53,538 nt of DNA, taken from IMG/VR virus record IMGVR_UViG_3300025833_000212, positions 1 through 53,538 of that record. One strand, 5' to 3'. This DNA is from a virus (lineage: Duplodnaviria; Caudoviricetes). Below, piece by piece: positions 11,349 to 40,898 of this stretch; within the stretch, counting starts at the first letter, position 1, and each line of letters starts with the position of its first letter. A model generated the notes under the pieces. It did no database searches. It was given only the letters and a program-made list of their open reading frames with translations, and was not told the origin of the DNA. A program made the translations under genes and the position numbers.

Positions 11349-11374
11349 CCAAGGCAAAAAACAGGAGCACTGAT

Positions 11375-11734
11375 ATGACACGTAAAGTCGAATTAGGCGC
11401 TCCTTCCCTCACCGGGAAGGACGCCAACGAACTAGTAGCAGCTGAGTTTTCAAAAGTCAAGTACCCACTGGCCGTGGTGGTCACCAACAACATGCCTTGC
11501 AACGCGGTTTTCCCAGAAGTTGAAGGCCTGTTTTTAAGCCACTGCGCCAATGCAGCGGGCCGCGTCAAGGCAGTCGTGATTGAGAGTGCTGACGCATTCC
11601 AGCGCCTAGCTTCCAGTATTGAACAGATTGCAGAACTCAATGGCTTTGCCTCTGCCGTGACCATCGAAGAGGTTGAAGTGATTGCGCCCGTCAAAGGCAA
11701 AGCCACGCAACCTGTTGCAGCCACTGCTGCGTAA
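11375..11734 (+). CDS. hypothetical virion protein
   Basis: AGGAG RBS, 119 aa between capsid and sheath. Confidence 0.55.
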   Translation: MTRKVELGAPSLTGKDANELVAAEFSKVKYPLAVVVTNNMPCNAVFPEVEGLFLSHCANAAGRVKAVVIESADAFQRLASSIEQIAELNGFASAVTIEEVEVIAPVKGKATQPVAATAA

Positions 11735-11744
11735 GGGGCTGTAA

Positions 11745-13385
11745 ATGAGTACCGCATTTGTACGACAACTCGGTGCTGAATCTGGCGTCCAGCTTAATCC
11801 CCTGGTTGACAATTCAGAAATCCCGACAAGCAGCAACGATGACCAGATTTTTGGCATCGTGATGCGCGCCACCCGTGGCCGCATTGACAAGCCTTTCAAG
11901 GTTGACCGAAGCACGGTGTTCAAGAAGTTGGGCAAGGGCGAACAAATCCGCACATCTGCACTCAATGAAGCTTGGGTGCATGTGGTAGAGGCACTGAACA
12001 ACGGCGCTTATGAGGCCGTGGTGCAGCGCCTGACTACGCCTGCGGCTGCCATCAGTTGGGCTGGCCTGACTGTGACGCCTGTCACTTTTGCCAACGCGTT
12101 TGCCGTGACTCCCACCGAACCCACCGGGCACCTGATCGGCGTGAAGCACCTGGAGTGCTACAACGACGGCATTGTGCTGGAAGTCCGAGCGGACGAGAAA
12201 AAGGTCGGCGGCGTGGCTATTGCCAACAACGTGGTGACCTTGCGCATCCGTGACAAAGACGGCGTTCTGCTGTATGAATTCACGGGCTCGCTTGACCCTG
12301 CCGCGCGAGATGATTACGGCAATTCGTCCTATCTGCCTGATGTGGTGCTGTCTTTGACTGATGCAGTTGAGGTATCTGTCGGTGTGACGGGTGCAAGTGC
12401 AGCGATTGAGCCCACCTCGATGGCTTATGGCTACGACGCCAACGGCAAAGAGCAATGGGCCAAGTCCGGCACGCTGGTGTGCTTCACTGAGGGCGGAATG
12501 GGTTACGCCACAGCGGACTACATGGCTGCACGGGTCTTGCTGCAAAACACCGTGTTCAACTATGCCTACATCTCCAGTGGTGGCACGCAAGCCCCCGTCC
12601 TTTTGGCGCAACTGGCGCAGCTGGCGTTTGACACCAACCGGCAACTGCGCTTTGACATCCCGGGTAACCTGAACCCAGAGGCTGCGATCACCTTCGTCGA
12701 GCAGTTGAACATGGGTGCCAGCCCAACCGCTCACCTGATGCACGCCTTTTGGGCGCCACTCAAGTCCGATGATCCAACTGGCGTTAATGCCAAGGGTCAT
12801 TTTGGTGTGGCTACGCTGAACATTGCTTACGCTTGCGGGCGCAATGCACAGACCAATGCCAAGGGCTTTGCGCCAAAGAACTACGTGGTGGCGGGCCGCC
12901 AGTGGCCAATCCAGCGGGTTCGCGTGACGCAGACCTATAGCCCCACCGGGCAGGAGTTGAATGCGCTTGCCAAAGCCAAGATCAACCCTGTTCTGTTTGA
13001 GGTATACACCGGTGGCGGCCGTTATGTGTTCCGTGACTCGTTGACTTCCGCCTTGGTCGAATCCAGCCTTAAAAAGCTGATTTCGGTAGCCGACATGTCA
13101 ACAAGCATTGATGATGCAGTAACCCGCTTCAGCAAAGACATTCTGCAACTGCCGATGCAAATCTCGGTTAAGCGCATGAATGACTTTTTGGGCGAGTTGT
13201 TTGCAGGCGCTGAGGCCTCTGGTTGGCTGGTTCCGTCAAACGACCCATCCATGGCGGGAAAGGCATTCAAGTATGACGTTCGACCCAATGAGGTTCGCCC
13301 TTACGACCGCATGGATGTCAGCTACTGGCTGCGCTATGACGGCACGGTGCGTCAGATTTTTGTCACCCAGACGCTGACACGCTAA
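11745..13385 (+). CDS. contractile tail sheath protein (P1 gp22-like)
   Basis: 546 aa; N-terminal RGRIDKPFKV, C-terminal LNALAKAKINPV...FRDSLT...FKYDVRP...MDVSYWLRYDGTVRQI typical of sheath domain 1. Confidence 0.75.
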   Translation: MSTAFVRQLGAESGVQLNPLVDNSEIPTSSNDDQIFGIVMRATRGRIDKPFKVDRSTVFKKLGKGEQIRTSALNEAWVHVVEALNNGAYEAVVQRLTTPAAAISWAGLTVTPVTFANAFAVTPTEPTGHLIGVKHLECYNDGIVLEVRADEKKVGGVAIANNVVTLRIRDKDGVLLYEFTGSLDPAARDDYGNSSYLPDVVLSLTDAVEVSVGVTGASAAIEPTSMAYGYDANGKEQWAKSGTLVCFTEGGMGYATADYMAARVLLQNTVFNYAYISSGGTQAPVLLAQLAQLAFDTNRQLRFDIPGNLNPEAAITFVEQLNMGASPTAHLMHAFWAPLKSDDPTGVNAKGHFGVATLNIAYACGRNAQTNAKGFAPKNYVVAGRQWPIQRVRVTQTYSPTGQELNALAKAKINPVLFEVYTGGGRYVFRDSLTSALVESSLKKLISVADMSTSIDDAVTRFSKDILQLPMQISVKRMNDFLGELFAGAEASGWLVPSNDPSMAGKAFKYDVRPNEVRPYDRMDVSYWLRYDGTVRQIFVTQTLTR

Positions 13386-20846: not shown

Positions 20847-23800
20847 ATGCCCATTCACATTTCTGAGGTCCAAGCCATGCACCCACAACGCTACTGGAGT
20901 GCCGATGCGCTTCCTGTCGGCCAAACCATTGACCAACTGCTGTACGAGATTCGCTGCTCTGACCATGGAGACAACCTGATGCTTGATGGCGTCACGCTGG
21001 CCGACATCATGGAAGACTCAGACGGCACCGTGGCGCTTGACGCCATGGTGGCGCCCTTTGCTTCCCTGAATCGCAAGATGGAAGCGTTGCAGCGTGTCAT
21101 GGAGCGCACCAGCGGCACAGTCAAGCCCGTGGCCATGCAGGTCACAGACCCGTTCACCCAGCGCGGCGTGGCCAACGTGGCAACCATCTTTGAGCTGTCG
21201 GATGGCCAGACGGTATCGATCTATTTTCACAACCCGGACGTGACCCCCAAAAAGATGATGGGCACGGACGAAGTGATCTCGTGGAAGTGGCTGCTGAACA
21301 AGAAGGACATCACGATTGTGGTGGCCCCTGAGCGTGGCAGTGACCTCAACATCAACGAAGTGGCTCGGCGCATCATGAAGCTGGCCGAAAAGAACAGCGC
21401 GGCATTCCAGCGCGTAAACGCCAAAAAGGCTGAATCCATGCAGCGCCTGGGCAACTTGAAGACTGAAATTGCCGGGCTTGAAAAGGAACTCAAAACGGTG
21501 CAGGATGAGCTGGGCGTTGCGCAGATGCAGGCCGAAGAGCGTGCGGCATCCAAAGATTCACGCGAGGCTCTACTGGCAGCCCAAAAGGCCGCGCGTGAGG
21601 CTGAGCTGGCTACCCGTGTGGCGCTGTATGACATCGGCAATACCAACACGAAAACAGGGCGCTGGAACAAGAGTGGCGGGCAACTGATTGTCAGTAGCGC
21701 CGAAGGTGGCTTATACAAGTGGGTGTTTGAGGACGTGGTTCAGCGCACCATCACCAACACTGTCGAGGCGGCTTTTGAATGGCTGGGCGGCGTGCTGATG
21801 GGCATGGGTGAGGCGGAGCTGAGCCGCGAGCAGGTGCTGAGCCGTTTGAAGTTCAAAGATGGGACGGACTTGCTGGGCGCCACCCCATCAGTTGCATTGC
21901 CGGACGCACGCGGGGCCAACACTCTTTTGAATGAATACCAGGCGCTGAAATCACAAAATCCAGAGGCGCTTCTTGCGCACCGGGTGGGTGACTTTTACGA
22001 GCTCTTTGAACAGGACGCAAAAACGGCAGCATCATCTTTGGAGTTGACGCTTACCTCAAGAAACGGCACCCCGATGGCAGGTTTCATGTTTCATGCATTG
22101 GAGCAGAACCTAGCCAGTTTGGTCAAAAATGGATTTTCAGTTGCGGTTTCTGAGCGGGATGAGAGTGGCGTGTCTAGCATTGCAAGAATTGTCAAGCCTG
22201 AGTCGGTATCGCCTTCCGCTGCGCCTGTGGCTAGCGATGGTGGCGGTAGCGACAACTACGCATGGGCAGAAAAAGACATTGGCTACGCACCAAACCGCCC
22301 AAAAGGCAAGTTTTATATGCTGGTTTCCAAATCCGATTCAGCTATTGCATCTGCATTCGGCGCCGCACCAAAATACAGCGACATGGTGCAGTATTTCGCT
22401 ACGCCGGAAGATGCAGGCGTTTGGGCGAATGCAAATGGGTATGTGTTTGGGCCTAATCCGTATGTCGAAGTTGTGCCAGATATTCTTTCAGAAGAAGAAC
22501 TTTCTGCCAAGGCTTTAAAGGTTCAAGACTACGTCGAAAAAGTTATTGCCGGGACCACAAAACTCAACAAAGTTGATATTGGCGTGATTTGCACCAGTGC
22601 AGCCGACAAGATCATTGCAGTAACGGGATTGCCGGCACATTCAGCCATGGAAGTGATTATTGCTGATCGCGTAATTCACGCCACAAACAGGCATCCAGAT
22701 TTAACCAATGAAGACTGGGGCAGGCTGCCAAAATTGACAAACCAATTTGATGAAGTGGCGCTAGGCGAGAAAAATATAAATCCTGACCTGACCAGCATCG
22801 TTGTGAGGAAATCCTTCCCCGACGGAGAGGGGTTTGGCGCTGTTCTTGCGTTTGCTCAAGGCAAAGGCAAGAAGCGACTTAACCTGGTCACGTATTTCAA
22901 AGGTCGCGGTAAGAGCCTTGATGCATGGTGGGAAAAGAATAAGGGCCTTAACCCCCCCACTGTCCCGAACCACCCGGAACCTGCGTCTAGCGCCCATGAG
23001 GGTCTGTTAAAGCCCTTGGGGGAAACTGTACCCGCTCCAGCCGAGCCTGTCAACCCCGGCGCAGCCAGCACCAAAGAATCCCTGATCGAAGCCTACAAAG
23101 CCGCGTGGCAGACCGAGGCCGACAAGCTCAACGCACTGGTGGCCAGCGTGAACTGGGTGGGCATCACAGATGAAGCCAGTGGCAAATCCGAGATCACTCG
23201 CTTGTATGCCGAGTTGAAGAACACCAAAGACATTGCAGCAGCGCGCCAAGCCTTTGAGAACGCCGGATACAAAAACTGGAATGACCTACCCAATATGGAT
23301 GATGTTCCTGGGTATCGGGCGCACAGCGATGCCATGGATGCATTCCGGGACCTGAACCAAAAAATCAGCGACGCCATCAAAGACGCCACCAAAAAACAAG
23401 GGAAAGCCGACTTTGCGAACCTGCCAGCCAATGCGCCCATTGAAGACATGGCTCAGGTGGTGTACCGCAAGCATGGTATCGAGACCACTGGACGGAACGA
23501 CTATTTTGAAAAGATCATCCTGGCCATCAAAGACAAAGATGCTGAGGTCTTGCAAGGCGTGTTTGGCGGTGTTGGCAGCAACAACAACCTGGCTAGCATG
23601 GAGGTGTTTGAGCGCGCTACCGGGTTGAAGTTGGCCAACACGCAAAAAGCGCGTGCATTGCAGATTGACGCATGGGCAGACATCACCCCTGAGGCACGGG
23701 CACAGATCGAGGCTGACAAAGACGCCGCCTGGCAGGCCAAAGAGCTGATGGAGGCCGTTAAGGACAAATGGAACTACCTGACCTCATTCACCATTTACGG

Positions 23801-26800
23801 CAATGACCACATTGTGTTGAATGGCCAGCAGTGGGTGCTTGATCTGGCGTCCGAAGGGAAAACAGAGATCAAGACGTTTAAAAAAGGAGCCGTTCCCGTT
23901 TATGGATTGGGTCTCCCGGGTGGTAGCGAAATCAATCATGCAAAAAGCAAGACGGTAACTGACTTCTTCCGGGTGGCACAAAAGTTCGGCGGCCTGTTGC
24001 CAGCGCTGGCACTGGTTGGGGCGGTCGTCCCCGAGCCAAAGGCGCCAGTTGACAACACAATCCAAATGAAAGACGTGTACGGCGTGGATTTGAGCGTTGA
24101 CAAAGCCCAGTATGCCCGCGAGAGCGTTCAACCGGCTTGGCTCATCCCTGTGGACGTGGGCGGCGCGCCTGATGGCGACTACTACGCCCAGGAGCTTTCT
24201 GTGTTGCGCTATGGTTCATCCCTGATCTACCGCGCCGATGGCTCTGTGATGCTGGAAAAAAGCAAGACCGGGCAAGGCGACTTGGGCGGCGATGCCGATG
24301 CGTTCAGAACATTTTTGGCAAAGCCCAAGGGAATGACCGAAGACCAGTTCAAACTGGCCCAATACAAGCAGCTTCGCCTCGACCTGGACAGCGGCATGCA
24401 AAAGCCTGCACAGATCATTGGCGGCGGGCACAAAAATGCCAGAAAAGACGCTGAAAAGTACCTTGATGACCGCATTGCTGAATATGAGGGCAAGGTGGCT
24501 GATGGTGTGCCGATTGAGTTGACCGGCAAGGAGCTGGGGGACTTTCCGGATACCGAGCAAGGGCTTGTTTCCCTTCGCGCTGCGGCTGTTGCAGTCTACA
24601 AAAAAGACTTGGAATCAATTGACGGAGTGACCAATGTGGCTTTGAACAAGTTGGTGGCATTTGATGGCACAGGGCGCGACAAGATCGAATCTTTTAGCGC
24701 GGACCCCAGAAAGCTCCACCTGGTGGCAAAGTTGGGATCTATTGTGCGAGACGGCAAACCAACACCCATAAGCCCAATGCAGCCCCATGGAAAGTCGGCG
24801 CTCAAAGGCGTCAAGCTGGTGCATGTGCTTAAAACCCCCGTAAAGCTCGCAGGGGAAAGCATCAAAGTTAGATTCTTGGTTTACGAGAAGGCCGATGGAA
24901 ATCTTTTTTACGACCACAGCGTGGACAACAGCGAAGTAAAGGCAGCGATGGGTGGAAATGCGGAGGTGCTGGATTCAGCCGAAGCCGCTGATCTGAACCT
25001 TCCCGCCCTGCTCTCAAATGAGCCGTCATTCGAGCACCGCTGCGTGGAAAGTGTAGGCGATGATTTAGAAAACGTCAACGCCTACAGCGATTTTGACGAA
25101 TCAGAGGTGGGCGAGGTCTTCATGGCTGAAGAAACCACACTGGATTCAGCCACTGGCAGCCAGATGGTGTTCAACCTGTTCATTGAGGGCGAAGCGCCCG
25201 AGGTGGTGGAGTTTGAAGATGATGCGCCTGTGGCGCCGGTGGCGCCTGTGGCAGAGCCGGTTGCAACGACGCCAACAGCCCCCCTTGATGAAATCAAGTG
25301 GAAGAGACTGAAGGCCGACATCGTGGGCAGCATTTCAGCCATCGCAGCCATTGACAAAGGCCTGTCACCAGGTATGGACCGCTCCCTGTTTGTCAGCAGC
25401 ATTGCGGGCAAGATTCGGCGCAGCAATGACCGAGGCGAGACGGCCATGGCGGGCACTGCGCTGGCTTTTGTCGAGCGTGCGCAGCAGTCCATGCCCAAGC
25501 CTGCCTTCGCGCCATCCAACAAGATTTGGACAGAGGTGGATTGGATGCCGTTTGCGGCGCAGTTTGAACCTGTGAAGGCTGAACCCAGTTCAGCGCCAGC
25601 AACACCAACCCCCAAGACCCTAAGTGAGTTGCTGGATGCTGCAGGTCTGCAGGCGGTTGAGCTAAAAACTGACCTGAAGCGCGACAAGCGACTCATGATC
25701 TCGCGCAAAAGCAGTCCATCCGGAGATGGTGTCATCTTGAGGGTGTCTGGCGGTCAATATGTGATTTCGCAGAGCAGTTCTGATGCGAGCTTGAACGCCG
25801 CAGTCGGTGGAATTGTGGCTAGCATTCGTGAATTAAGCATGGGTGAACAACTGAATGCGGCCGAGAAAACATCCTCCCAGACACAGTACGACGCAGCCCC
25901 GTTCAGGGTGATTCCGGCATCCGTGGCAAATCGCCAGCTCTCAGAATTTGAAGGGCAAGACTTGGCTTTCGCGCAGGGCATGTTGAAGAGTGATAAGCCA
26001 TTCAGTGGAAAGCTCCGCATGAAGCGCATGGGCGGCGAGCGGCGTGAAATGTTCGAGGTGTCCCTGATTATTCGCGGCCAAACGCCATCTAAAGTCACCA
26101 GGCTTAGCGAAAGCAGCACCATTGAGGAATTGGCCGAACTGATCGCTTTGGATATGGATTCGCTGAAATTGGATTTCTCCACCCTATCCGATGATGTCGA
26201 GACGCCAGCAGCACCCGGCGCGCCAGTTGCGCCAGAACCCATTCCGTCAGCTACACCGAACGCCTCAACTGCCATATCTGAAGCCATTGATGCTGCCATT
26301 GACAGCATTGGAAATTCAGTTGCAACGGGTGACGGTTTGACTTGGGCTGTCAGCAAGGCTTCTTTGCAAAAGATGATCGCCAAGACAAATGCGGATGGCG
26401 ACAAGCCGTATCAGAAAGAGCGAATCATCGCCATCCAGCACCTGAAGGAAATTGCCGCATCAACCAAAACGCCGGTGATCCGGGAAGACGATGGCCGGGA
26501 CCCGCAAGTTGAAGCCGTCTATGAGTACAACACCAATTTCACCGTGCTTGACGCAGTGCGCGGTGTTCGGCTGCTCTGCAAGAAATTCAAAACACCCACA
26601 AAGAACATGAAGGACAAGATGCACAGCATGGCTATGGATGAAGCAAAAGGCCCCGCCAATCTTATTGACACTGACGGGATGTTGTTTGACCTAGCAATCT
26701 TTGAAAGTGAATTCAAAGGGGGGGATGGGGCACGGCCGGTGTCTGAACAACCAGTACCCCCCTCAGTCAGCAACGATTTGAATTTAGGCGAAATCGGTGC

Positions 26801-27023
26801 AAAAGTCAATGCCGACAAGGAATCTGACCAAATGACCGCCGACAAAGCCCTGTTCCAGTCCGTCATCGACGGCAGCGCCCCTGACCTGATCGAACCTGAT
26901 CTGGCCGACAAACTGGAGGCGGCCTACAACCGTCATATCGGCAACACAGACATGGAAGCCATGTTTGAGATGGCCGTGAATGCCTACGGTGAAGCCAGTC
27001 TTGCCGCCTCTGCTGATCTGTAA
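20847..27023 (+). CDS. darA: DarA-like large polyvalent virion protein (DarA_N, MutS-I-like, PBECR-like, two LPD3-like domains, DarA_C)
   Basis: FELSDGQTVSIYFHNPDVTP...WKWLLNKKDITIVVAPERG (DarA_N); YQALKSQNPEALLAHRVGDFYELFEQDA (MutS-I, ~21920-22200); HATNRHPDL..EDWGRLP...NLVTYF (~22530-22940); VTNVALNKLVAFDGTGRDKI...FYDH (~24510-24920); VSKASLQKM...AIQHLKEI...VRLLCK..MHSM (~26270-26640); ADKALFQSVIDG...FEMAVNAY (DarA_C). Confidence 0.7.
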   Translation: MPIHISEVQAMHPQRYWSADALPVGQTIDQLLYEIRCSDHGDNLMLDGVTLADIMEDSDGTVALDAMVAPFASLNRKMEALQRVMERTSGTVKPVAMQVTDPFTQRGVANVATIFELSDGQTVSIYFHNPDVTPKKMMGTDEVISWKWLLNKKDITIVVAPERGSDLNINEVARRIMKLAEKNSAAFQRVNAKKAESMQRLGNLKTEIAGLEKELKTVQDELGVAQMQAEERAASKDSREALLAAQKAAREAELATRVALYDIGNTNTKTGRWNKSGGQLIVSSAEGGLYKWVFEDVVQRTITNTVEAAFEWLGGVLMGMGEAELSREQVLSRLKFKDGTDLLGATPSVALPDARGANTLLNEYQALKSQNPEALLAHRVGDFYELFEQDAKTAASSLELTLTSRNGTPMAGFMFHALEQNLASLVKNGFSVAVSERDESGVSSIARIVKPESVSPSAAPVASDGGGSDNYAWAEKDIGYAPNRPKGKFYMLVSKSDSAIASAFGAAPKYSDMVQYFATPEDAGVWANANGYVFGPNPYVEVVPDILSEEELSAKALKVQDYVEKVIAGTTKLNKVDIGVICTSAADKIIAVTGLPAHSAMEVIIADRVIHATNRHPDLTNEDWGRLPKLTNQFDEVALGEKNINPDLTSIVVRKSFPDGEGFGAVLAFAQGKGKKRLNLVTYFKGRGKSLDAWWEKNKGLNPPTVPNHPEPASSAHEGLLKPLGETVPAPAEPVNPGAASTKESLIEAYKAAWQTEADKLNALVASVNWVGITDEASGKSEITRLYAELKNTKDIAAARQAFENAGYKNWNDLPNMDDVPGYRAHSDAMDAFRDLNQKISDAIKDATKKQGKADFANLPANAPIEDMAQVVYRKHGIETTGRNDYFEKIILAIKDKDAEVLQGVFGGVGSNNNLASMEVFERATGLKLANTQKARALQIDAWADITPEARAQIEADKDAAWQAKELMEAVKDKWNYLTSFTIYGNDHIVLNGQQWVLDLASEGKTEIKTFKKGAVPVYGLGLPGGSEINHAKSKTVTDFFRVAQKFGGLLPALALVGAVVPEPKAPVDNTIQMKDVYGVDLSVDKAQYARESVQPAWLIPVDVGGAPDGDYYAQELSVLRYGSSLIYRADGSVMLEKSKTGQGDLGGDADAFRTFLAKPKGMTEDQFKLAQYKQLRLDLDSGMQKPAQIIGGGHKNARKDAEKYLDDRIAEYEGKVADGVPIELTGKELGDFPDTEQGLVSLRAAAVAVYKKDLESIDGVTNVALNKLVAFDGTGRDKIESFSADPRKLHLVAKLGSIVRDGKPTPISPMQPHGKSALKGVKLVHVLKTPVKLAGESIKVRFLVYEKADGNLFYDHSVDNSEVKAAMGGNAEVLDSAEAADLNLPALLSNEPSFEHRCVESVGDDLENVNAYSDFDESEVGEVFMAEETTLDSATGSQMVFNLFIEGEAPEVVEFEDDAPVAPVAPVAEPVATTPTAPLDEIKWKRLKADIVGSISAIAAIDKGLSPGMDRSLFVSSIAGKIRRSNDRGETAMAGTALAFVERAQQSMPKPAFAPSNKIWTEVDWMPFAAQFEPVKAEPSSAPATPTPKTLSELLDAAGLQAVELKTDLKRDKRLMISRKSSPSGDGVILRVSGGQYVISQSSSDASLNAAVGGIVASIRELSMGEQLNAAEKTSSQTQYDAAPFRVIPASVANRQLSEFEGQDLAFAQGMLKSDKPFSGKLRMKRMGGERREMFEVSLIIRGQTPSKVTRLSESSTIEELAELIALDMDSLKLDFSTLSDDVETPAAPGAPVAPEPIPSATPNASTAISEAIDAAIDSIGNSVATGDGLTWAVSKASLQKMIAKTNADGDKPYQKERIIAIQHLKEIAASTKTPVIREDDGRDPQVEAVYEYNTNFTVLDAVRGVRLLCKKFKTPTKNMKDKMHSMAMDEAKGPANLIDTDGMLFDLAIFESEFKGGDGARPVSEQPVPPSVSNDLNLGEIGAKVNADKESDQMTADKALFQSVIDGSAPDLIEPDLADKLEAAYNRHIGNTDMEAMFEMAVNAYGEASLAASADL
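22932..23017 (-). ncRNA. putative antisense small RNA 1 embedded in darA after the PBECR-like domain
   Basis: 12-bp terminal stem AAGGGCUUUAAC/GUUAAGGCCCUU (23017-23006 / 22952-22941), internal hairpins, 3' AUUCUUUU. Confidence 0.6.
23025..23053 (-). promoter_or_regulatory. antisense sigma70 promoter for sRNA 1
   Basis: TTGACA (23053-23048) - 17 nt - TACAGT (23030-23025). Confidence 0.7.
24934..25043 (-). ncRNA. putative antisense small RNA 2 embedded in darA after first LPD3-like domain
   Basis: 9-bp terminal stem GCAGCGGUG/CAUCGCUGC, internal hairpins CUCGAAUGA-CGGC-UCAUUUGAG and UCAGC-GGCUUCG-GCUGA, 3' CUUUACUU. Confidence 0.6.
25050..25078 (-). promoter_or_regulatory. antisense sigma70 promoter for sRNA 2
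   Basis: TTGACG (25078-25073) - 17 nt - TACACT (25055-25050). Confidence 0.7.
26645..26774 (-). ncRNA. putative antisense small RNA 3 embedded in darA after second LPD3-like domain
   Basis: GGGGGGU/AUCCCCC stem, CUUUGAA/UUCAAAG hairpin, terminator-like CCCGUCAGU/AUUGGCGGG + GCCUUUU. Confidence 0.55.
26781..26809 (-). promoter_or_regulatory. antisense sigma70 promoter for sRNA 3
   Basis: TTGACT (26809-26804) - 17 nt - TAAATT (26786-26781). Confidence 0.7.
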
Positions 27024-27037
27024 CCGGGATACCCACC

Positions 27038-30000
27038 ATGAACACGATGACTATGATTTTTGACAAAGCCGCCAATGGCCTGAGCCCATTGGAAAAAATG
27101 AAACTGATTCGCAGCCTGAATATGGTGCGCACCGACATTGCGGCCGTGGGCGCGGGCGCATTGGCCGCCATGAAAAAACTCAAACTGCTCTCGAACCTGA
27201 ATCATATCCGCGTGCAGCTTGGTTCCACCAAGAATTTAGAGCCAAACAAGCCTCTAGCCCCCGTGGATACTGCGCAAGCAGCTACTAATTTAATATCAAG
27301 TGAACAGGAAACAAAAAGTGTTGAAACCAAAGAAACCCCTCAAGCCGTCAAAACAGAAACGCAAGGACAGCCATCACCCGTCGCCGATATTTCAGCCCCA
27401 GACCCGGTAAAGAAATCAGCCAGTAAGCGCCAAAAAGACAACAACGCCGCCATCGATGCGCTGCGCAAGGTCAAGTCCGGTGAGGCTGATGCCAAAGACC
27501 CGGCCATTCGTGAAGCTCTCAAAGGCTACAGCGGCAGCGGCGGCGGCCTGAAGACAGCGCAAGGCACATCGGGCAGCCCGCATGAATACTACACACCCGC
27601 GCCGGTGGCCAAAGCCATGTGGAACATGCTCGACGGGCTTGGTTTTTCCGGTGGCAAGGTGCTTGACCCCAGCTCCGGCATGGGTGTGTTTGCGCGCACC
27701 AAGCCTGACAACGTGGCGATTGAGCAGATTGAACTGGATTCAATTTCAGGAGAGATCAATGGACTACTCAACGACGGCCCCACGGTATCGACCCGCGTGG
27801 CCTCGTTTGAAGAGGTGGCCGCCAGCACCGACGATGAAACCTTTGATGCGGTGGTCACCAATGTGCCGTTTGGCGACAAGGCCATGCGCGGCGCCCACTG
27901 GCGCAAAGACAAAAAGTACCAGAACGCCAACTTGCAGGAATACTTCATCCTGCGCGGCCTGGAGAAAATCAAGCCCAGCGGCTTCGCGGCCTTCATTGTG
28001 CCGCCGTCCGTAGTAGCGGGTAAAGGTGGCAAGGGCGTGGCGCTGCGCAACAACGTGTCGATGGCAGCCGAGTTTGTGGGCGCCTACCGCCTGCCCAACG
28101 TGGTGTTTGATGAAGCCGGGGCAGACACCATTACCGACATCATCATCCTGCGCAAACACAGCAAAGACAACAAGGCCAAGATTGACGAACTAGCCCAGCA
28201 AAATGCCGCGCTGTTGACCCAGACCAATGTGATCTGGCCTGACTTTGTGGAGGGCAACTACTTCAAGCTTGACGGCAAGCGGTTCCAGATTGGTGAATCC
28301 ACGGTAGGCAAGGGCCGCTTTGGTGAGGTCGAGAAGGTGGCATTCACCGGGTCCATCGGCTCCATTGCGGCACTGCTCAAACCGTTCCCCAAAGCCAGCC
28401 GGATTGATTGGGCCATGCTGGGGGCTGTGGAGACGGTGCCCATTGTCTACGCCGAGGGTGACACGGTGTTCTCTGGTGGCGCTATGTTGCAAATGACCGA
28501 GGGCAAGCTGGTGCCGGTCGAGGGCGGTCTGACCAATGACGATGCCGAGGCTGTCAACCTGATGGCTCGGTTCACATCGCCACTGGATGCAATCAACCAA
28601 GGCTTGACCTTCGACGATGCCAGCCGAGCGCTGACCAATGAAGAAACCTGTGGTCGCTTAGGCTCAGTGTCGCGCTGGATTGTGTCGGCTCAACGTGCCG
28701 CCCATGCAGCCGCCAAAAATCAGGGCGAATGGTTTGACGCCATCATGGCTGGCATGGCTGTGCAAGAGTTCGCCCAGTCCGGCAACAAGGAGGCTCTGAA
28801 CTATGCCGCCGACTACCCGGAGCTGAGCAAGGTGCTGGCTCGCGTGCAGGGCTATGCCAGCAAGCGCGCTGGAGTGGGTGGTGAGGTGGTGGCCGAGGCG
28901 CTGCAAAACATTGCCGTGGCACGCAAAAAAGGCGTGTTCACACCCTGGTGGACTGGCAACGTGGCCAAAGATGCCACACTGGTGCTCACGGTCAACCAGT
29001 CGTATGCCAAGATCAAGTTAGAGAGCGAAGATGAAACCGGTTATGTGCCTGCGGCTGAGATGCGCCAGGCCTTTGCTGATTTTGACCCGCTCAACGATGA
29101 CGCCTGGTGCGTGTCGCCGGATGGCTCTGGCGTCATGAGCGCTGACGATTACTATTTTGGCAACTACGCTGAGTTTCTTGCGCGCGCCCAACAGGAGCTG
29201 AGCGAGGCCACTGACCCGGCGATCAAAGAAAAGCTGTTGCGCCAGCACGCCAAGGCATCCGAGCGCATCACCCTGGTGAACCCGTCGCGCATGAAGTTTT
29301 CACTGGAGACTGCGTTTGTGTCAGACGCAGAGAAGGCCGAATTCATCAAGCAGTACGTGTCTGAAAACATTCAGGTGGGCATGGACGCTAATGGCAAGCC
29401 CAAGTTCAGCTACGAGGGCAAGGCGCCCGACAAATATACCTCTGCTGATGAAGTGCGCCGCATCAAGACGCTGCGCCGCTTCGCCATCTACCTCAACAAC
29501 AAGACCATCACCACCGGCAGCGGCGACCGGGCGCTGGACGACCCCAAAGAAGAGCAGGCTTTGCTGGACTCGATCAAGGCCATGGTCAACGCCAGCACGG
29601 CACAGTTTGACGCTTGGTGCAAGTCCAATGAGGACATTGCCAGTGGCATCAGCCGCCGCATAAACGCGCCCGAGAATCTGCGCTTTGTCGAAGTGCCCGA
29701 TTACGCCCCGGTGGACATCCCTAACTGGAACCCGGCCTGGGTGCCACACGGCTACCAGTATGCAGCGGTGCGCCGTTATGCCAAGCGTTTTTCAGGCATT
29801 TTGGCGCTGGACGTTGGGCTTGGCAAGGCGCAACCACTTGATTCAAAAATCCTGACCCCCGATGGATGGAGGCAAATGGGTGACATGCGTGTTGGAGATA
29901 TGGTCATTTCTGTTGACGGCATCGCTGTTCCGGTGACCGGAGTTTTTCCGCAAGGCGAGAAAGAAATATTTGAAGTCGAGTTCAGCGACGGATCAAAAAC

Positions 30001-33000
30001 AAAATGCTGCGATGAACACTTATGGGAAACCCAAACTGAGACAGATCGCAAGAATGAACGCTATGCCAAGCGTAATGGCAATGACCGAGTGATCAATGGT
30101 ACGGTCAAGTCACTGCATGAAATTCGTGAAACACTCATTTACCAAACCCAAAAGAACCACAAAATCCCGATGGTGTCCCCTGTTCAATTCCCCGAACAGG
30201 CTTTGCAAATCCACCCGTATTTGATGGGTGTATTGCTTGGAGATGGGAGTTTGTCACACGGATCGGTGTCATTCACAAAAAACGATGCAGAAATACCAAG
30301 CCGCATTTGCCACTTACTAAAAGATGGGTTTGGAGATGCGGTTGAGTTGCGAAAAATGGCAGTAGGCGAGAGGTGTGATTCATGGAGAATCAGCCGGACA
30401 GCAATCGGTGGGTTAAACCCAGTCAGATCAATGCTTGATGATTTTGGGCTGATGGGAACAAAGTCGGATACGAAGTTCATACCGAAGCAATACCTAATTG
30501 GATCAGTCTCGCAGCGCATTGAATTGCTGCATGGCCTCATGGATACCGATGGGTACGTGAGTAAAGACGGCATGACCGTTCAGTTCTCAAGCACGTCAAA
30601 AATGCTTTCTGATGGTGTTGTTGAGTTGGTGCAGAGCCTTGGTGGAATCGCGTGGACAACCTTCAAAACGCCGACTTTCACCTACAAAAATGAGAAAAAG
30701 GAAGGCAAGTTGGCTTACACGGTATCCATGCGTATGCCAAGCGATATCAATCCGTTTTTACTGGAGAGAAAAGCCAGTTGCGTCAAGGCAAAATCAAAAT
30801 ACATCCCGGTAAGGTATTTCACCGCAGTGCGCGAAGTGGGCAAAGCTCAGGCTCAGTGCATCAGTATTGATCACCCGACACACCTTTATGTGACGGATGA
30901 CTACATCGTCACCCACAACACCCTTACAGCATTGGCCGCAGTGCAATACGCCCAAAGCATTGGCTCCAAAAAGAAAACTGTGTTTGTGGTGCCAAACTCA
31001 GTGTTGACCAACTGGAAAAAAGAGGCCGGCAAGGCGTACCAGGACACCAGCGACTGCTTGTTTGTGGGTCTGCAGGTGGACGACAAGGGCAAAGCCAAAT
31101 ACAGCTCCAAGGCAGCCACGGACGACCTGAACACCATTCGGGAAAACCGCCACAGCAAGATTTTCATGACCTACGAGACACTGACACGTATCCCGCTGCG
31201 CGAAGACACCTTGCAGGCCTACAAGGACTACCTGTTGGCCAATGACGATTCTTTTTCCAAACAGGCCGAAGAGGGCGCTAACGAGAAGACCCGCGACAAA
31301 ATTTCAGCCGAGCAGGCTGTGGCCAATGCGATTGAATCCGGTTCCAAGGCGGGTAACGTGCCTTTTTTTGAGGACATGGGCATTGATTCGATCATCGTGG
31401 AGGAGGCCCACAGTTTCAAGAATTCAAAGAAGGCCAGCAGCGAATTCAAGGCAACCCGCTTTGTCGCCAACCCTGAAAGCTCCAAGCGCGGCATGGACAT
31501 GCAGGCCAAGTGCTGGTACATCCGGGGTATGTCGGGCAGCGGTGACGGGGTGCTGGGGTTAACTGCCACTCCGGTGACTAACTCACCCAGCGAGATTTAC
31601 AGCATGATGGCGCTGACCATTGGCGAAAAAGAAATGAACGCCATGTGCGGCTGCACCGGCACTGACTCGTTCATGATGAACACCTGCGACATTGAAAACC
31701 GCGAAGAAGACGACCTGACCGGCGCACCAAAGAGCCAGCGCACCCTCAAAGGCATTGCCAACCTGGATATTTTGCGCCGGGTGCTGGATTCGGCCGCCAT
31801 GATTGAAACCCCGGAGACAGTGGCCGCCAAGGGCATCATCATCGAAGTGCCAGAGGCCGAAGAAGCCATGTCGAGCGTGGAAATGTCGCCGGTAGACGCC
31901 GCCATTCTCAAAGACATCAAGGACGCCTACTTGGAGGCATCTTCGCTGAAAAAGGCTAGGGTCAAGCTATCCCCCAAAGAGGCCATCATGGCGTCGCCGT
32001 TTAACGCGATTCGTAACATGACCAAGCTGATCACCGACAAGGAACTGTACCAGGGCAAGTTCCTGTTTGGGTTTGACGCCAAAGAGCAAGCCAAAGCCGA
32101 GGCTGTGGTGGCTGCATTCAACAAGCTCAAGATCACCGAGGAATGCAAAGAGTACGAGTTGCCGTTTGGCATCGACACCACGGGCATGAAAGCCAAGATG
32201 GTGACCGACAAGGAGTCCGGCAACGAGGCCATGATTTTCTATGTGCCGGTGCTAGCTTCGATTGAAGACGGCAAGATCGTCCTGCCAGCGGTTGACTACC
32301 AGACACACGACCGCTTCATGACCCTGGTCAACAAGTCCGGCTTGGGCCTGACGGCTAACGCCAGCCCCAAGACGCAGGCGCTGCTGGCCAACCTGCAAAA
32401 GGAAAACGCCAGCCCACGCTGGAAGCCCGCTAAGCAGATCGTTTTTTGCGACGAACTGGCGCTGCACCACAAGCTCAAGTTGTTGATTACGGCTGAAACA
32501 GGCATCCCTAGCGGGAAAATTTGCATCGTCAACGCCAAGTCGGTGTCACCCGATGAAATCCAGAACGTGCAGGACGGCTTCAACGCCAACGAAGATGATA
32601 ACCAGTACCAGATCATCATCGCCAACAAAAAGGCCGAAGTGGGTATCAACCTGCAAAACGGCACACAGGCCATTCACCACCTGACGATTGGCTGGACGCC
32701 TGATAGCATTCACCAGCGCAACGGGCGCGGCGTTCGCCAGGGCAACAAGGTGGAAACCCCCATCATGATCTACCACTACGAGGCCAACGGCACCTTTGAT
32801 GCCTACAAGCGCCGGCTGGTGAGCGTGAAGGGCGACTGGATCAAGAGCCTAATGGACAAGGACGCAGAAAATGTGGCGATTGAAGGCGACTTGTCCGCTG
32901 AAGACTACGCCCGCATGACCTCGCTGGTGGGAGACTCGGACGCCATGGCACAGTTTAATTCGGACATGGCAAAAAAAGCCAAGGCGCAAGTGGCACAGTC

Positions 33001-35062
33001 GGCCAAGATCACCCAGGTCAACTCGCTGTCGGTGGCTATGGGGCAACAAAAGTGGCTCGACAAGTTTGAGAATGACAGCGCCGGGTTCACGGCATGGGTC
33101 AAAGCCAAAGTGGTGGCATCCAGCCTGATTGCTGACGAAATTGAAAAGCTGTACCAGCGCGCGCAAAAGACCGAATCAACCGACGTGGCCAACCGCTGCA
33201 ATGCAAAAATTTCCGAATTGAACACCAAGCGCTTGGCCATTGATGCACTGTACGCAGGCATTGACAATGCCGACAACAAGTGGTTAAACGTAACGGCATC
33301 AAAGTTCCCAGACACGGCAGCCGTAGCCAACTGGACTAAAGACGTGGCCATCAACCGCAAGATGCTCGACGAAGCCAATGCCGCGTGCCTGACCCGTGTT
33401 ACGCATGGCTACAGCAAGGAAACGCTCGACAAGGTGGCGTCCAAAGAGGCGGTTCTGATGGGCGGCAAGATTCTGGCTGCTGGTGACTTTGTGATTGCAG
33501 ACGGCAAGCCGGGTGTTTTGAAAATGATTCAGCAGCGTGGAAGCTCCGGCCTGTCGTTGGTATACCAAGACGATCAAGGTGGACTTGAAATTAGCCAGGT
33601 GGCTGGAATGTCAATCACGATGCACGGGACGCAAGGCAGTGAAGATCGCGCCGAGATTCTTAAAATGCTGGTGAATTTGGATGAAGACCAGATCAAGGCA
33701 AGCAATACCGGTAATCTTTTCGCGTACCAGTCGATGGATGTGCGCAGAGCCCTGCGCAGCGTGATTCCTTCGCGTCAAATAAGCTTTGACGGTCGATTTG
33801 GCCGCGATGAAGATTGCTGGGTGGCTGCACCTCACTTCCCTGTGGTGATGCCGCCAGATGCGGAAGGCCCGTTCTGTGCGCGCATCGTGGCCGAGCAGTC
33901 CAATCTGATAGAGTTCAGTTCCAGCGGCTGGCAGAAGACATTCCGCTTCAAGGATTCGCGCAACCAGGGCGAAGGCAATGGGCGCGAGGCATGGCAGGCT
34001 GTGGCAGGGTGGATGACGGCCAACAGCCAGACCATGACCATGCAGGAAGTGGTGGGGCTTGACAGCACCAACATGTTTCAGACGGATTTAAGAAATGCCT
34101 TTTCGGGCGCGCTGGACGCCATGGTGGCAACCTGCACTAATCTGGCCGAACTGGACGCCGCCATGGTGGCCTGGGCCAGTGCAACCTATCCGTGGGTGGG
34201 TGGGTTTGATGCCAGCATGGTTGAAGCTTTCAATCTGGAGCGCTTTGTTAACAAGGCCAAAGCCGAGCTTGATGATGGGTCGGTGAAATACGACGTGGTC
34301 GTTGACGGCTACAGGTTTAACACTAGTCCACTGCCAGCGTCTACTAGGGCCATACACGCCGCCATTGTGGCCGCGTTCGCAGCCGGAGCGCTGAATGCCG
34401 AGATGGACAAATTAAATGAGAAAGTTGGTGGACGCTATGGTGCCAGCTTGTATGCCGTGACAACTTACGGCAACTCGCCCGAGCTGGTGGCCAGCTACAA
34501 GCAAGTGATTTTGGATGCCATTGGAGGCCAGGAGGATGGCGATCTGATCAACATGGCTGAGTCGCCGTTTGCCGAACTGATGCGGGCTGATTACAAGATG
34601 GGCAAGGGCGCAGTGGTTAAGTTGAACTGGGATTGCCTGAACTCACCAAGCCGCTACATCGACGGGCTGCAAGATGCCATCAACGCCTACGCCATCAAGC
34701 AAAAGCAGGCGGGTATGGGCTTGGATGTGGATGGCCTGCTGGCACAAATCAGCAACGTGGCAGGCGTGGCATCGGCCAAGGTGGGCATGGTCAACCACGC
34801 CAAGGTGCGCGACAAGTACACCGGATCACACCTTTACAAGGCGGGCGAGTACATCCGGCTGCTGCTGCCTCGTGGCGGCGACTTGAATGCGCGCTTTGCC
34901 AATAAGGTAACAGGCTTGCAAGGGCGCGCCTTTGATGATCGAGCCAAAGAGTTTTTGGTGAGCTTAGTGCCAGCCAAATTCAGCGACGGCAAAGATGTTG
35001 CTGATGTGATTGCTCTTGCGCGATACTTGTCCATCGACCCAACACCCTACAAAAAAGGCTGA
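27038..35062 (+). CDS. darB: DarB-like N6-methyltransferase / SF2 (SNF2-like) helicase fusion, intein-containing
   Basis: EYYTP, VLDPSSGMG, VVTNVPF (MTase); ALDVGLGK|T, IIVEEAH, LTATP, QRNGRGVRQGN (helicase). Confidence 0.8.
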   Translation: MNTMTMIFDKAANGLSPLEKMKLIRSLNMVRTDIAAVGAGALAAMKKLKLLSNLNHIRVQLGSTKNLEPNKPLAPVDTAQAATNLISSEQETKSVETKETPQAVKTETQGQPSPVADISAPDPVKKSASKRQKDNNAAIDALRKVKSGEADAKDPAIREALKGYSGSGGGLKTAQGTSGSPHEYYTPAPVAKAMWNMLDGLGFSGGKVLDPSSGMGVFARTKPDNVAIEQIELDSISGEINGLLNDGPTVSTRVASFEEVAASTDDETFDAVVTNVPFGDKAMRGAHWRKDKKYQNANLQEYFILRGLEKIKPSGFAAFIVPPSVVAGKGGKGVALRNNVSMAAEFVGAYRLPNVVFDEAGADTITDIIILRKHSKDNKAKIDELAQQNAALLTQTNVIWPDFVEGNYFKLDGKRFQIGESTVGKGRFGEVEKVAFTGSIGSIAALLKPFPKASRIDWAMLGAVETVPIVYAEGDTVFSGGAMLQMTEGKLVPVEGGLTNDDAEAVNLMARFTSPLDAINQGLTFDDASRALTNEETCGRLGSVSRWIVSAQRAAHAAAKNQGEWFDAIMAGMAVQEFAQSGNKEALNYAADYPELSKVLARVQGYASKRAGVGGEVVAEALQNIAVARKKGVFTPWWTGNVAKDATLVLTVNQSYAKIKLESEDETGYVPAAEMRQAFADFDPLNDDAWCVSPDGSGVMSADDYYFGNYAEFLARAQQELSEATDPAIKEKLLRQHAKASERITLVNPSRMKFSLETAFVSDAEKAEFIKQYVSENIQVGMDANGKPKFSYEGKAPDKYTSADEVRRIKTLRRFAIYLNNKTITTGSGDRALDDPKEEQALLDSIKAMVNASTAQFDAWCKSNEDIASGISRRINAPENLRFVEVPDYAPVDIPNWNPAWVPHGYQYAAVRRYAKRFSGILALDVGLGKAQPLDSKILTPDGWRQMGDMRVGDMVISVDGIAVPVTGVFPQGEKEIFEVEFSDGSKTKCCDEHLWETQTETDRKNERYAKRNGNDRVINGTVKSLHEIRETLIYQTQKNHKIPMVSPVQFPEQALQIHPYLMGVLLGDGSLSHGSVSFTKNDAEIPSRICHLLKDGFGDAVELRKMAVGERCDSWRISRTAIGGLNPVRSMLDDFGLMGTKSDTKFIPKQYLIGSVSQRIELLHGLMDTDGYVSKDGMTVQFSSTSKMLSDGVVELVQSLGGIAWTTFKTPTFTYKNEKKEGKLAYTVSMRMPSDINPFLLERKASCVKAKSKYIPVRYFTAVREVGKAQAQCISIDHPTHLYVTDDYIVTHNTLTALAAVQYAQSIGSKKKTVFVVPNSVLTNWKKEAGKAYQDTSDCLFVGLQVDDKGKAKYSSKAATDDLNTIRENRHSKIFMTYETLTRIPLREDTLQAYKDYLLANDDSFSKQAEEGANEKTRDKISAEQAVANAIESGSKAGNVPFFEDMGIDSIIVEEAHSFKNSKKASSEFKATRFVANPESSKRGMDMQAKCWYIRGMSGSGDGVLGLTATPVTNSPSEIYSMMALTIGEKEMNAMCGCTGTDSFMMNTCDIENREEDDLTGAPKSQRTLKGIANLDILRRVLDSAAMIETPETVAAKGIIIEVPEAEEAMSSVEMSPVDAAILKDIKDAYLEASSLKKARVKLSPKEAIMASPFNAIRNMTKLITDKELYQGKFLFGFDAKEQAKAEAVVAAFNKLKITEECKEYELPFGIDTTGMKAKMVTDKESGNEAMIFYVPVLASIEDGKIVLPAVDYQTHDRFMTLVNKSGLGLTANASPKTQALLANLQKENASPRWKPAKQIVFCDELALHHKLKLLITAETGIPSGKICIVNAKSVSPDEIQNVQDGFNANEDDNQYQIIIANKKAEVGINLQNGTQAIHHLTIGWTPDSIHQRNGRGVRQGNKVETPIMIYHYEANGTFDAYKRRLVSVKGDWIKSLMDKDAENVAIEGDLSAEDYARMTSLVGDSDAMAQFNSDMAKKAKAQVAQSAKITQVNSLSVAMGQQKWLDKFENDSAGFTAWVKAKVVASSLIADEIEKLYQRAQKTESTDVANRCNAKISELNTKRLAIDALYAGIDNADNKWLNVTASKFPDTAAVANWTKDVAINRKMLDEANAACLTRVTHGYSKETLDKVASKEAVLMGGKILAAGDFVIADGKPGVLKMIQQRGSSGLSLVYQDDQGGLEISQVAGMSITMHGTQGSEDRAEILKMLVNLDEDQIKASNTGNLFAYQSMDVRRALRSVIPSRQISFDGRFGRDEDCWVAAPHFPVVMPPDAEGPFCARIVAEQSNLIEFSSSGWQKTFRFKDSRNQGEGNGREAWQAVAGWMTANSQTMTMQEVVGLDSTNMFQTDLRNAFSGALDAMVATCTNLAELDAAMVAWASATYPWVGGFDASMVEAFNLERFVNKAKAELDDGSVKYDVVVDGYRFNTSPLPASTRAIHAAIVAAFAAGALNAEMDKLNEKVGGRYGASLYAVTTYGNSPELVASYKQVILDAIGGQEDGDLINMAESPFAELMRADYKMGKGAVVKLNWDCLNSPSRYIDGLQDAINAYAIKQKQAGMGLDVDGLLAQISNVAGVASAKVGMVNHAKVRDKYTGSHLYKAGEYIRLLLPRGGDLNARFANKVTGLQGRAFDDRAKEFLVSLVPAKFSDGKDVADVIALARYLSIDPTPYKKG
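27235..27298 (-). repeat. palindromic element copy D, in-frame within darB
   Basis: reverse complement TGATATTAAATTAGTAGCTGCTTGCGCAGTATCCACGGGGGCTAGAGGCTTGTTTGGCTCTAAA; encodes LEPNKPLAPVDTAQAATNLIS. Confidence 0.7.
29828..30919 (+). mobile_element. class 3 intein with LAGLIDADG homing endonuclease (364 aa) in helicase Walker A
   Basis: GK|AQPLDSKILTPDGW...CCDEHLW...YLMGVLLGDG...LLHGLMDTDG...AQCISI...YIVTHN|T; lower GC than flanks. Confidence 0.9.
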
Positions 35063-38391: not shown

Positions 38392-38426
38392 GGTGCTTGC
38401 TTGGTGGTGATTGGGCAAGTCTAGCC

Positions 38427-38468
38427 CGGAAAACACCCGCATTCTGAGGGTGTTGCGCTGCCTACTAT
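38427..38468 (+). promoter_or_regulatory. putative late promoter 6 (leaderless portal transcript)
   Basis: CGGAAAACAC + 26 nt + TACTAT; ATG 6 nt downstream, no RBS. Confidence 0.75.
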
Positions 38469-40896: not shown

Positions 40897-40898
40897 CC

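Follow-up and report, generated by a model that had tools for sequence, protein, structure and literature searches.

Prophages of Bacillus carry type I toxin-antitoxin pairs, txpA/RatA and bsrG/SR4, in which the antitoxin is an antisense RNA that overlaps the 3' end of the toxin gene, and in the type III system ToxIN the RNA component, ToxI, is a tandem array that lies upstream of the toxin gene on the same strand and is processed by the toxin. Here we analyse a stretch of 53,538 nucleotides (nt), referred to below as the window, which makes up positions 1 to 53,538 of the IMG/VR virus record IMGVR_UViG_3300025833_000212 (Duplodnaviria; Caudoviricetes), and describe three predicted small RNA genes that lie antisense within one of its genes, P0001 (20838-27023, plus strand), a single open reading frame (ORF) of 2061 amino acids (aa) encoding a polyvalent, putatively virion-borne protein. 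In phage lambda, according to the OOP passages of PMC5869508, the OOP RNA is transcribed constitutively by the host polymerase from pO to the hairpin at tO, overlaps 52 nt of the 3' end of cII, whose product is toxic when made in excess, and lowers the amount of CII, thereby suppressing its toxicity by a route tied to cleavage by RNase III.

Phages and plasmids inject, along with their DNA, large anti-defence 'multi-tools' known as polyvalent proteins, and the spacers between the domains of these proteins have so far been read only as protein. In the main text of Iyer et al. 2017 (PMC5512222) the terms 'antisense', 'promoter', 'small RNA' and 'linker' are absent and spacers are treated as protein only, while its section on PBECR domains names neither an RNA nor a protein inhibitor. 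No report of antisense RNA genes within polyvalent or Dar genes came up in full-text literature searches. In the window gene, three units composed of a predicted promoter and a predicted RNA, which we call cassettes, follow a PBECR3-like domain (22605-22919, plus strand; aa 590-694), an LPD3 domain (24570-24911, plus strand; aa 1245-1358) and an unnamed third domain (26250-26780, plus strand; aa about 1805-1981).

Predicted antisense promoters in the polyvalent gene

The original prediction, made from the letters alone, placed three near-consensus minus-strand sigma70 promoters with 17-nt spacers within this gene, and a promoter scan recovered all of them at the same positions: promoter 1 at 23053-23025 (TTGACA/17/TACAGT, 10 of 12 consensus matches), promoter 2 at 25078-25050 (TTGACG/17/TACACT, 9 of 12) and promoter 3 at 26809-26781 (TTGACT/17/TAAATT, 9 of 12). 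All three have the -35 and -10 hexamers of a sigma70 site at a spacing within the 16-18 nt range, and under a generic sigma70 matrix built on approximate consensus frequencies they rank first to third among all positions on both strands of the window, promoter 1 being the highest. The strict pattern TTGAC-N18-TANNNT occurs six times on the two strands of the window, and three of these occurrences fall on the minus strand of the polyvalent gene, which holds 8 TTGAC and 22 TANNNT motifs in total. Null means for this count were 0.037 under codon permutation and 0.068 under synonymous shuffling, and three or more sites were reached in 0 of 5000 shuffles of either kind, which, together with the matrix ranks, argues that the promoters are not chance occurrences. 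A loose promoter definition gave 8 sites between 20 and 30 kb where 4.3 +/- 2.3 were expected, an excess that is not significant alone, and the remainder of the window was if anything depleted of such sites (3 versus 8.2 and 6 versus 8.9).

All three promoters lie in codon frame 0. Because both hexamers fall in this frame, the promoters leave a common footprint in the protein, [T/S/N]-[V/L]-x6-V-N, and the resemblance among the three spacer peptides that had been pointed out earlier is genuine. At the -10, the three sites use the codons GTA, GTA and TTA, and codons of the form nTA account for only 6.9% of the Ile, Leu and Val codons of the gene. Likewise, Val is written GTC in the -35 hexamers, but GTA or GTG in the three VN dipeptides that the protein has elsewhere; promoter 1, for example, is built from the codons ACT GTA ... 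GTC AAC.

The claim that the MutS_I domain of the same protein lacks a cassette needs correction in part. A weak promoter-like site follows this domain at 22510-22482 on the minus strand (TTGGCA/17/AAGAAT, frame 0, peptide ILSEEELSAK), and no terminator was found there. In a separate observation, BLASTP alignments to mosaic relatives begin at or near the promoter sites, that to P0003 from aa 730 and that to P0004 from aa 1988 (nt about 23025 and 26799), so that cassettes 1 and 3 coincide with module junctions.

To place these sites in a wider context, we analysed 80 viral loci with DarA_N genes (L002-L081), which yielded 55 non-redundant genes (191 kb), and a replicate set of 35 further genes from prokaryotic genomes (111 kb) that is independent of the first. 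Across both sets (90 non-redundant genes), strong antisense sites occur at 3.5-4.5 times the synonymous-shuffle expectation. At scores of at least 14, the first set contains 11 antisense sites versus 2.5 by synonymous shuffle (maximum of 6 in 100 shuffles), and 0 sense sites versus 2.3 expected; at scores of at least 12, sense sites are strongly depleted (1 observed versus about 11 expected). Sense-strand depletion is weak in the second set (7 versus 9.4), in which 4 antisense sites were found against 1.13 expected and 6 of 6 sites have frame 0 and a 17-nt spacer. For comparison, 937 kb of flanking DNA hold 3 plus-strand and 11 minus-strand sites scoring at least 14. With the window included, there are 20 antisense sites that score at least 12.5; every one has a 17-nt spacer and 19 lie in frame 0.

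Codon usage within the footprint was assessed in 43 matches to the peptide x[ILV]x6[VF]N in homologous genes. At position 2, nTA codons are present in 16 of the 43, compared with 9.6% gene-wide (p about 1e-6). Where nTA is used, the Val at position 9 is encoded by GTC in 9 of 10 cases versus 3 of 21 of the rest, and 11 of the 16 have AnT as codon 1, versus 2 of 27 of the rest. This linked codon choice at three separate places indicates a two-part DNA signal rather than a peptide. The arrangement is kept in related phages and so looks selected, not accidental, and the observations above point to selection on the antisense promoter sites at the level of DNA and codons.

Predicted structured RNAs and the domains they follow

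The proposal that the promoters head short, structured RNAs is supported at the sequence level. Predicted RNA1 (about 88 nt; 22930-23017, minus strand) folds into a three-way structure closed by pairing of its 5' and 3' ends and followed by AUUCUUUUCCC. Predicted RNA2 (about 111 nt; 24933-25043, minus strand) is antisense to the 37 codons directly after LPD3 and has a weakly U-rich end, and predicted RNA3 (about 131 nt; 26644-26774, minus strand) ends in a hairpin of 10 base pairs and GCCUUUUG. Pairing between the 5' and 3' ends, anticipated for the first two RNAs, appears in the predicted folds of both. Fold z-scores are -2.44 for RNA1 (minimum free energy -37), -1.59 for RNA2 and -2.11 for RNA3, and the fractions of same-length antisense windows of the gene that are at least as stable are 0.002, 0.064 and 0.119, respectively. 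All three RNAs had been described as ending in U-rich tracts; a terminator-like hairpin with a U-run is present after sites 1 and 3, and none is present after site 2. The cassettes are unrelated to one another in sequence, as had been noted, and share nothing beyond 7-mers. Rfam gave no match at gathering score in the window or in loci L002, L021, L048 and L062, and the antisense ORFs past the promoters have no consistent start codon, Shine-Dalgarno sequence or length.

Each cassette has counterparts in related loci. At the equivalent position, the orthologue of RNA1 in L001/L082 is preceded by TTGGCG/18/TACACT (score 10.4), and RNA1 and its L001 counterpart share a common three-way fold of 26 pairs, of which 9 are changed on both sides and 0 are broken; the protein stretch over this RNA is otherwise barely conserved. 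Orthologues of promoter 2 are found in L002 (TTGAAA/17/TATACT, 15.2) and L030 (TTGAAA/17/TACAGT, 13.9), and in the comparison of RNA2 with L002 all 32 pairs hold, 3 of them changed on both sides. Promoter 3 has an orthologue in L140 (TTGACT/16/TATCAT, 13.2) that is the top site of its contig and lies in a different reading register, and one in L080 that reaches only TTGCTT/17/TAAGTT (7.9). We are more confident that RNA1 and RNA2 represent real RNA genes than that RNA3 does.

A family of mutually similar predicted RNAs was found after LPD3 domains in other loci, among them homologous prophages of cultured bacteria at L116, L132 and L149. Six post-LPD3 sites align over their full length, comprising the promoter, the start, a 5' helix around a hairpin, GGCGCU-loop-AGCGCC and UUUUUGUUU, so that in this family the hairpin and U-run of an intrinsic terminator are clear. 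A covariance model built from these six sites (R1) retrieved further copies, each of which, except for one tandem copy, has an upstream TTGACN, a 17-nt spacer and a -10-like hexamer. In the resulting 10 sequences, 88.5% of the cells are paired versus 74.5% in shuffles (a value reached by 0 of 500), 15 of the 28 pairs are changed on both sides, and slid controls are 39-45% paired. The family has 38 G-U versus 6 A-C cells, and the antisense strand is favoured (88.5% versus 77.0% paired), a comparison biased towards the antisense strand, on which the structure had been derived; the R1 model itself scores 66-100 bits on the minus strand versus 19-27 bits on the plus strand. Each copy starts a few codons past its LPD3 domain, and RNA2 (aa 1365-1402, LPD3 ending at aa 1358) occupies the exact position of these LPD3-linked RNAs. 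Among 151 sampled genomes of one class, R1 matched 2, one of which is the query genome itself. More generally, a hairpin with a U-run is found 30-160 nt past 13 of 24 promoters, as against 99 of 960 antisense positions drawn at random from these genes.

Some genes carry two cassettes. Tandem copies follow a single LPD3 in L002 (12876-13140) and L044 (14491-14701), and in L021 one cassette follows each of two LPD3 copies (11289-11412 and 12522-12645). In L002 the predicted end of the upstream RNA falls on the -35 of the promoter that follows.

The promoters also travel with particular domains, as the original prediction had proposed. For 17 non-redundant LPD3 blocks, the best antisense site within 260 nt downstream scores at least 10 in 16, at least 12 in 14 and at least 14 in 8, whereas only 5.5%, 2.8% and 1.2% of control windows (n=1020) reach scores of 10, 12 and 14. 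These best sites have a 17-nt spacer in 17 of 17 blocks and are in frame 0 in 15 of 17. In the more diverged LPD3 cases the promoter lies 45-56 aa past the domain, and sites persist where the neighbouring LPD3 shares just 29-41% protein identity. For seven PBECR1-like blocks the best scores are 16.0, 16.0, 15.7, 13.9, 11.3, 6.5 and 5.1, so that a site of at least 11 is present in 5 of 7 and one of at least 13.9 in 4 of 7. By contrast, only 2 of 47 non-redundant copies of conserved C-terminal modules have a site of at least 10 within 200 nt upstream, and both of these look like nearby LPD3-linked sites. The cassettes thus go with certain domains and not with spacers in general, and the idea that every spacer has a promoter can be rejected on the C-terminal modules. 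A lack of enrichment after homologous domains relative to other linkers had been named in advance as one result that would refute the proposal; enrichment was found for both LPD3 (16 of 17) and PBECR1 (5 of 7).

Host gene, neighbourhood and source of the DNA

The polyvalent protein combines DarA_N (21033-21398, plus strand; aa 66-187; Pfam PF18788, 152.6 bits versus a cut-off of 27), MutS_I (21924-22166, plus strand; aa 363-443; PF01624, 67.5 bits) and LPD3 (PF18798, 44 bits versus a gathering cut-off of 27) in one polypeptide. With these domains, the PBECR-like domain and an adjoining DarB-like methylase-helicase, it is a typical phage-type polyvalent protein as this class is described in the main text of PMC5512222. 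Its nearest phage match is annotated as 'internal head protein', from which a virion location is inferred. The PBECR3-like domain (PF18812) scores 23.9 bits when the whole protein is searched and 26 bits when the fragment is, both below the Pfam gathering cut-off of 30. The match is nearly full length, covering model positions 8-114 of 115, and the domain has homologues in L001/L082 and L055; it is likely a distant PBECR3 relative rather than a certified member. For the third domain, a search of aa 1781-1986 returned no Pfam family at E up to 1, and homologues are present in L080 (47%) and L140 (50%). LPD3 is not a known nuclease, and no fold could be assigned to it because the best match of its model (predicted local distance difference test score, pLDDT, 86.9) to the PDB had an E-value of only 0.046 and a template modelling (TM) score of about 0.3. 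The suggestion that all three domains are nucleases is therefore not supported, given a PBECR3 match below cut-off, an LPD3 without a PDB fold match and a third domain without a family.

The downstream gene (27038-35062, plus strand; 2674 aa) is DarB-like and contains an N6 methylase and an SNF2-related domain (aa 1295-1471). A LAGLIDADG_3 match at aa 1160-1204, just N-terminal of the SNF2-related region, may be an intein or a homing-endonuclease insert. Two weak promoter-like sites in this second polyvalent gene, at 29826 and 31419, were treated as chance, lying inside folded-domain motifs. The latter (31419-31305, minus strand; TTGAAA/17/GATGAT, frame 0) has a terminator-like hairpin about 79 nt later and falls in the helicase motif region, within the peptide IIVEEAHSFKN; it is probably fortuitous. 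Directly past the Dar-like genes lies a complete MmeI-type restriction-modification enzyme with all five MmeI Pfam domains (35515-38442, minus strand), and further on a 995-aa protein (40893-43877, plus strand) whose C-terminal domain is VgrG3-like (PF21277, 230 bits) and which is presumably a lysin of the tail tip or spike.

Window DNA is present in 24 groundwater and aquifer metagenome runs, all of them DNA. Four runs that cover the window in part, and at low depth, represent one strain: they show 3 single-letter differences and one 1-base gap, which leaves no population variation to draw on. In three of four DNA runs, a contig matches only the 37-nt stretch at 23080-23116, just upstream of promoter 1, and runs on as unrelated sequence on both sides; two of these contigs are given as 579 and 764 nt, with 7 differing letters. 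The relatives of the polyvalent gene are prophages of Beta- and Gammaproteobacteria. Scans with the window protein led to one locus among viral contigs (L001) and one among metagenome contigs (L082), which look like the same element, and a query with the alignment of the PBECR3-like domain found L001 and L082 again. No isolate phage matched the LPD3 region by tblastn or the L002 cassette region by blastn, and the one match from this source was to DarA_N, at 74% identity; plasmids gave none.

Possible roles of the RNAs and comparison with known systems

Taken together, the three sites are best explained as real, selected sigma70-type promoters, each heading a structured RNA gene of about 85-130 nt; that these RNA genes act in an OOP-like, cis-antisense mode we consider about an even call. 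Read in frame on the sense strand, the RNA genes are the disordered spacer that follows an effector domain, and the unit of domain plus antisense RNA gene is conserved in phages and prophages of Beta- and Gammaproteobacteria. We infer that the RNAs would be transcribed by the host RNA polymerase without a phage factor, both in lysogeny and early in infection. All three lie inside the sense ORF and are by position fully complementary to their putative target, so that each would pair with the polyvalent mRNA just downstream of its domain. The duplex could then trigger cleavage or decay, as with lambda OOP on cII or with the 3'-overlapping type I antitoxins, and in this way leaky synthesis of a potentially harmful effector would be blocked until strong late transcription outruns the RNA.

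Several observations weigh against this cis-antisense brake. RNA2 has no clear terminator, its 3' end being only weakly U-rich, and the R1 model has no match in the window. The structure of RNA3 is weakly conserved (covariation term +1.11 over 3 sequences), its homologues lack the U tract, and one of its two orthologues, in L080, has a weak promoter. The promoter scores depend on a consensus matrix with approximate frequencies, the hexamers lie within a recurrent spacer peptide (LDS-x8-[VF]N-[LI]xI...) that supplies part of the -35 for free, and homologous spacers share ancestry, so that the counts are not fully independent events. The RNAs also lie mostly over the spacer and not over the domain core, and silencing of the domain by pairing is therefore not obvious. 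Finally, the tight coupling to domains would fit a relationship between RNA and protein as well as, or better than, pure antisense action. When RNA1-3 were scanned for trans targets in the window, over 191 translation-start regions, their best energies did not exceed what shuffled RNAs reached, a result that argues neither way on action in cis.

In the explanation offered by the original prediction, each RNA is the cognate partner of the adjacent domain. It would serve either as a type III-like antitoxin or decoy, shielding the producer cell or the lysogen from an RNase-like effector, or as that effector's cofactor or guide. We regard this as a possible but unlikely account. Cassettes follow specific families (LPD3 in 16 of 17 cases, PBECR1 in 5 of 7, the C-terminal module in 2 of 47), the RNAs sit mostly in the spacer and off the domain core, and their conserved, covarying folds are what would be expected of protein-binding RNAs; moreover, PBECR domains are predicted endoRNases for which the PBECR section of PMC5512222 describes no inhibitor. 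It counts against this account that most cases, by a wide margin, come from LPD3, a domain with no assignment as a nuclease and with a model (pLDDT 86.9) that has no PDB match, and that the PBECR3 match of the window is below cut-off. The repeat structure of a ToxI-like RNA is missing too, since none of the three cassettes contains tandem or internal repeats, and the antisense, downstream orientation differs from that of type III loci. What survives of the earlier interpretation, in which each domain travels with its own cognate RNA, is its non-chance promoters, structured RNAs and domain coupling; its all-nuclease claim is not supported. A bolder version is offered only tentatively and seems to us unlikely. 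In it, the spacer next to every LPD3 or PBECR domain would hold, in antisense, an RNA 'immunity' gene for that domain; the RNA would neutralise the domain in the cell that produces or carries the phage, by binding it or by silencing its message, and the two would be swapped between phages as a unit.

It is also conceivable, if rather improbable, that transcription itself or a function in trans is what matters, be it strong host promoters that act as head-on roadblocks to, or interfere with, read-through of the late operon, hot spots for R-loops or recombination that favour module shuffling, or early trans-acting RNAs directed against transcripts of the host or a rival phage. The position of sites 1 and 3 at homology-block boundaries of mosaic relatives (aa 730 and 1988) would suit such a role, as would the duplicated and tandem cassettes of L002, L021 and L044, and the strong depletion of sense promoters in the same genes shows that transcription signals there are under selection. 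For interference or recombination alone, however, neither covarying helices nor a fixed distance to an intrinsic terminator would be required, the window offered no conspicuous trans target, and selection for shuffling is second-order and therefore weak. The least probable of the readings weighed here, in our judgement, is that there is no RNA function, the hexamers arising incidentally from a conserved spacer peptide whose codons are inherited, or being spurious antisense promoters of a sort common in bacteria that are tolerated. In enteric bacteria antisense transcription is common but seldom conserved (PMC3419515), the [VF]N of the recurrent peptide that overlaps the footprint yields TTGAC or TTGAA, the loose promoter scan of the window was not significant, and RNA3 is weakly supported. 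Against this, synonymous shuffles that keep the peptide give 2.5 sites where 11 are observed, codon choices co-vary at three separate positions, and the orthologous promoter in L140 is kept with a 16-nt spacer in another reading register, on which grounds we reject the peptide as the only cause. In addition, the promoters are linked with terminators and with a structure that covaries and is strand-specific, and sites are still present where the neighbouring LPD3 is down to 29-41% protein identity.

If these spacers are also RNA genes on the opposite strand, a conserved class of small RNAs is missing from the gene annotation of such phages, and it would also be overlooked by any search for structured RNAs that is limited to intergenic DNA. 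The spacers would then be dual-coding, with the promoter, the folded RNA and the terminator shaping their sequence down to the choice of codons, and LPD3, a domain of unknown function, gains a fixed RNA companion. There would also be a testable answer to how a carrier or producer cell escapes RNase-like effectors that have no known inhibitor, and, were the immunity-gene reading to be true, a new way to pack a toxin and its antidote into a single ORF.

Compared with known systems, the cassettes resemble type I pairs in being cis-encoded antisense RNAs of prophages, which in those pairs bind the 3' region of the toxin message. Type I toxins are small membrane peptides with promoters of their own, whereas the putative target here is one domain of a 2061-aa virion protein; membership in type I was rejected, the target being a multi-domain protein of this size and not a small hydrophobic toxin. 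As in ToxIN, the RNA could neutralise an endoRNase encoded beside it; unlike ToxI, the cassettes lack repeats and lie on the other strand and in another position. They share with the pervasive antisense promoters of bacteria (PMC3419515) the presence of sigma70-like sites antisense to coding DNA, and differ from these mostly non-conserved promoters in being conserved in distant relatives, fixed in position relative to a domain and followed by covarying structure and, at 13 of 24 promoters, by terminators. The resemblance to lambda OOP (PMC5869508) lies in a short antisense RNA opposite a coding region, with a predicted promoter for the host polymerase and, after sites 1 and 3, a terminator-like hairpin. 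OOP, however, is found at the end of a small regulatory gene and is partly intergenic, whereas here the whole RNA gene is inside one long ORF, and the cassettes, unlike OOP, occur several per gene, are translated as the spacer between domains and are coupled to domain families. In kind, the predicted element is thus a cis-antisense small RNA; its arrangement is new, in that one stretch serves both as a complete RNA gene and as an in-frame spacer of the protein, recurs within one ORF and is tied to specific effector domains.

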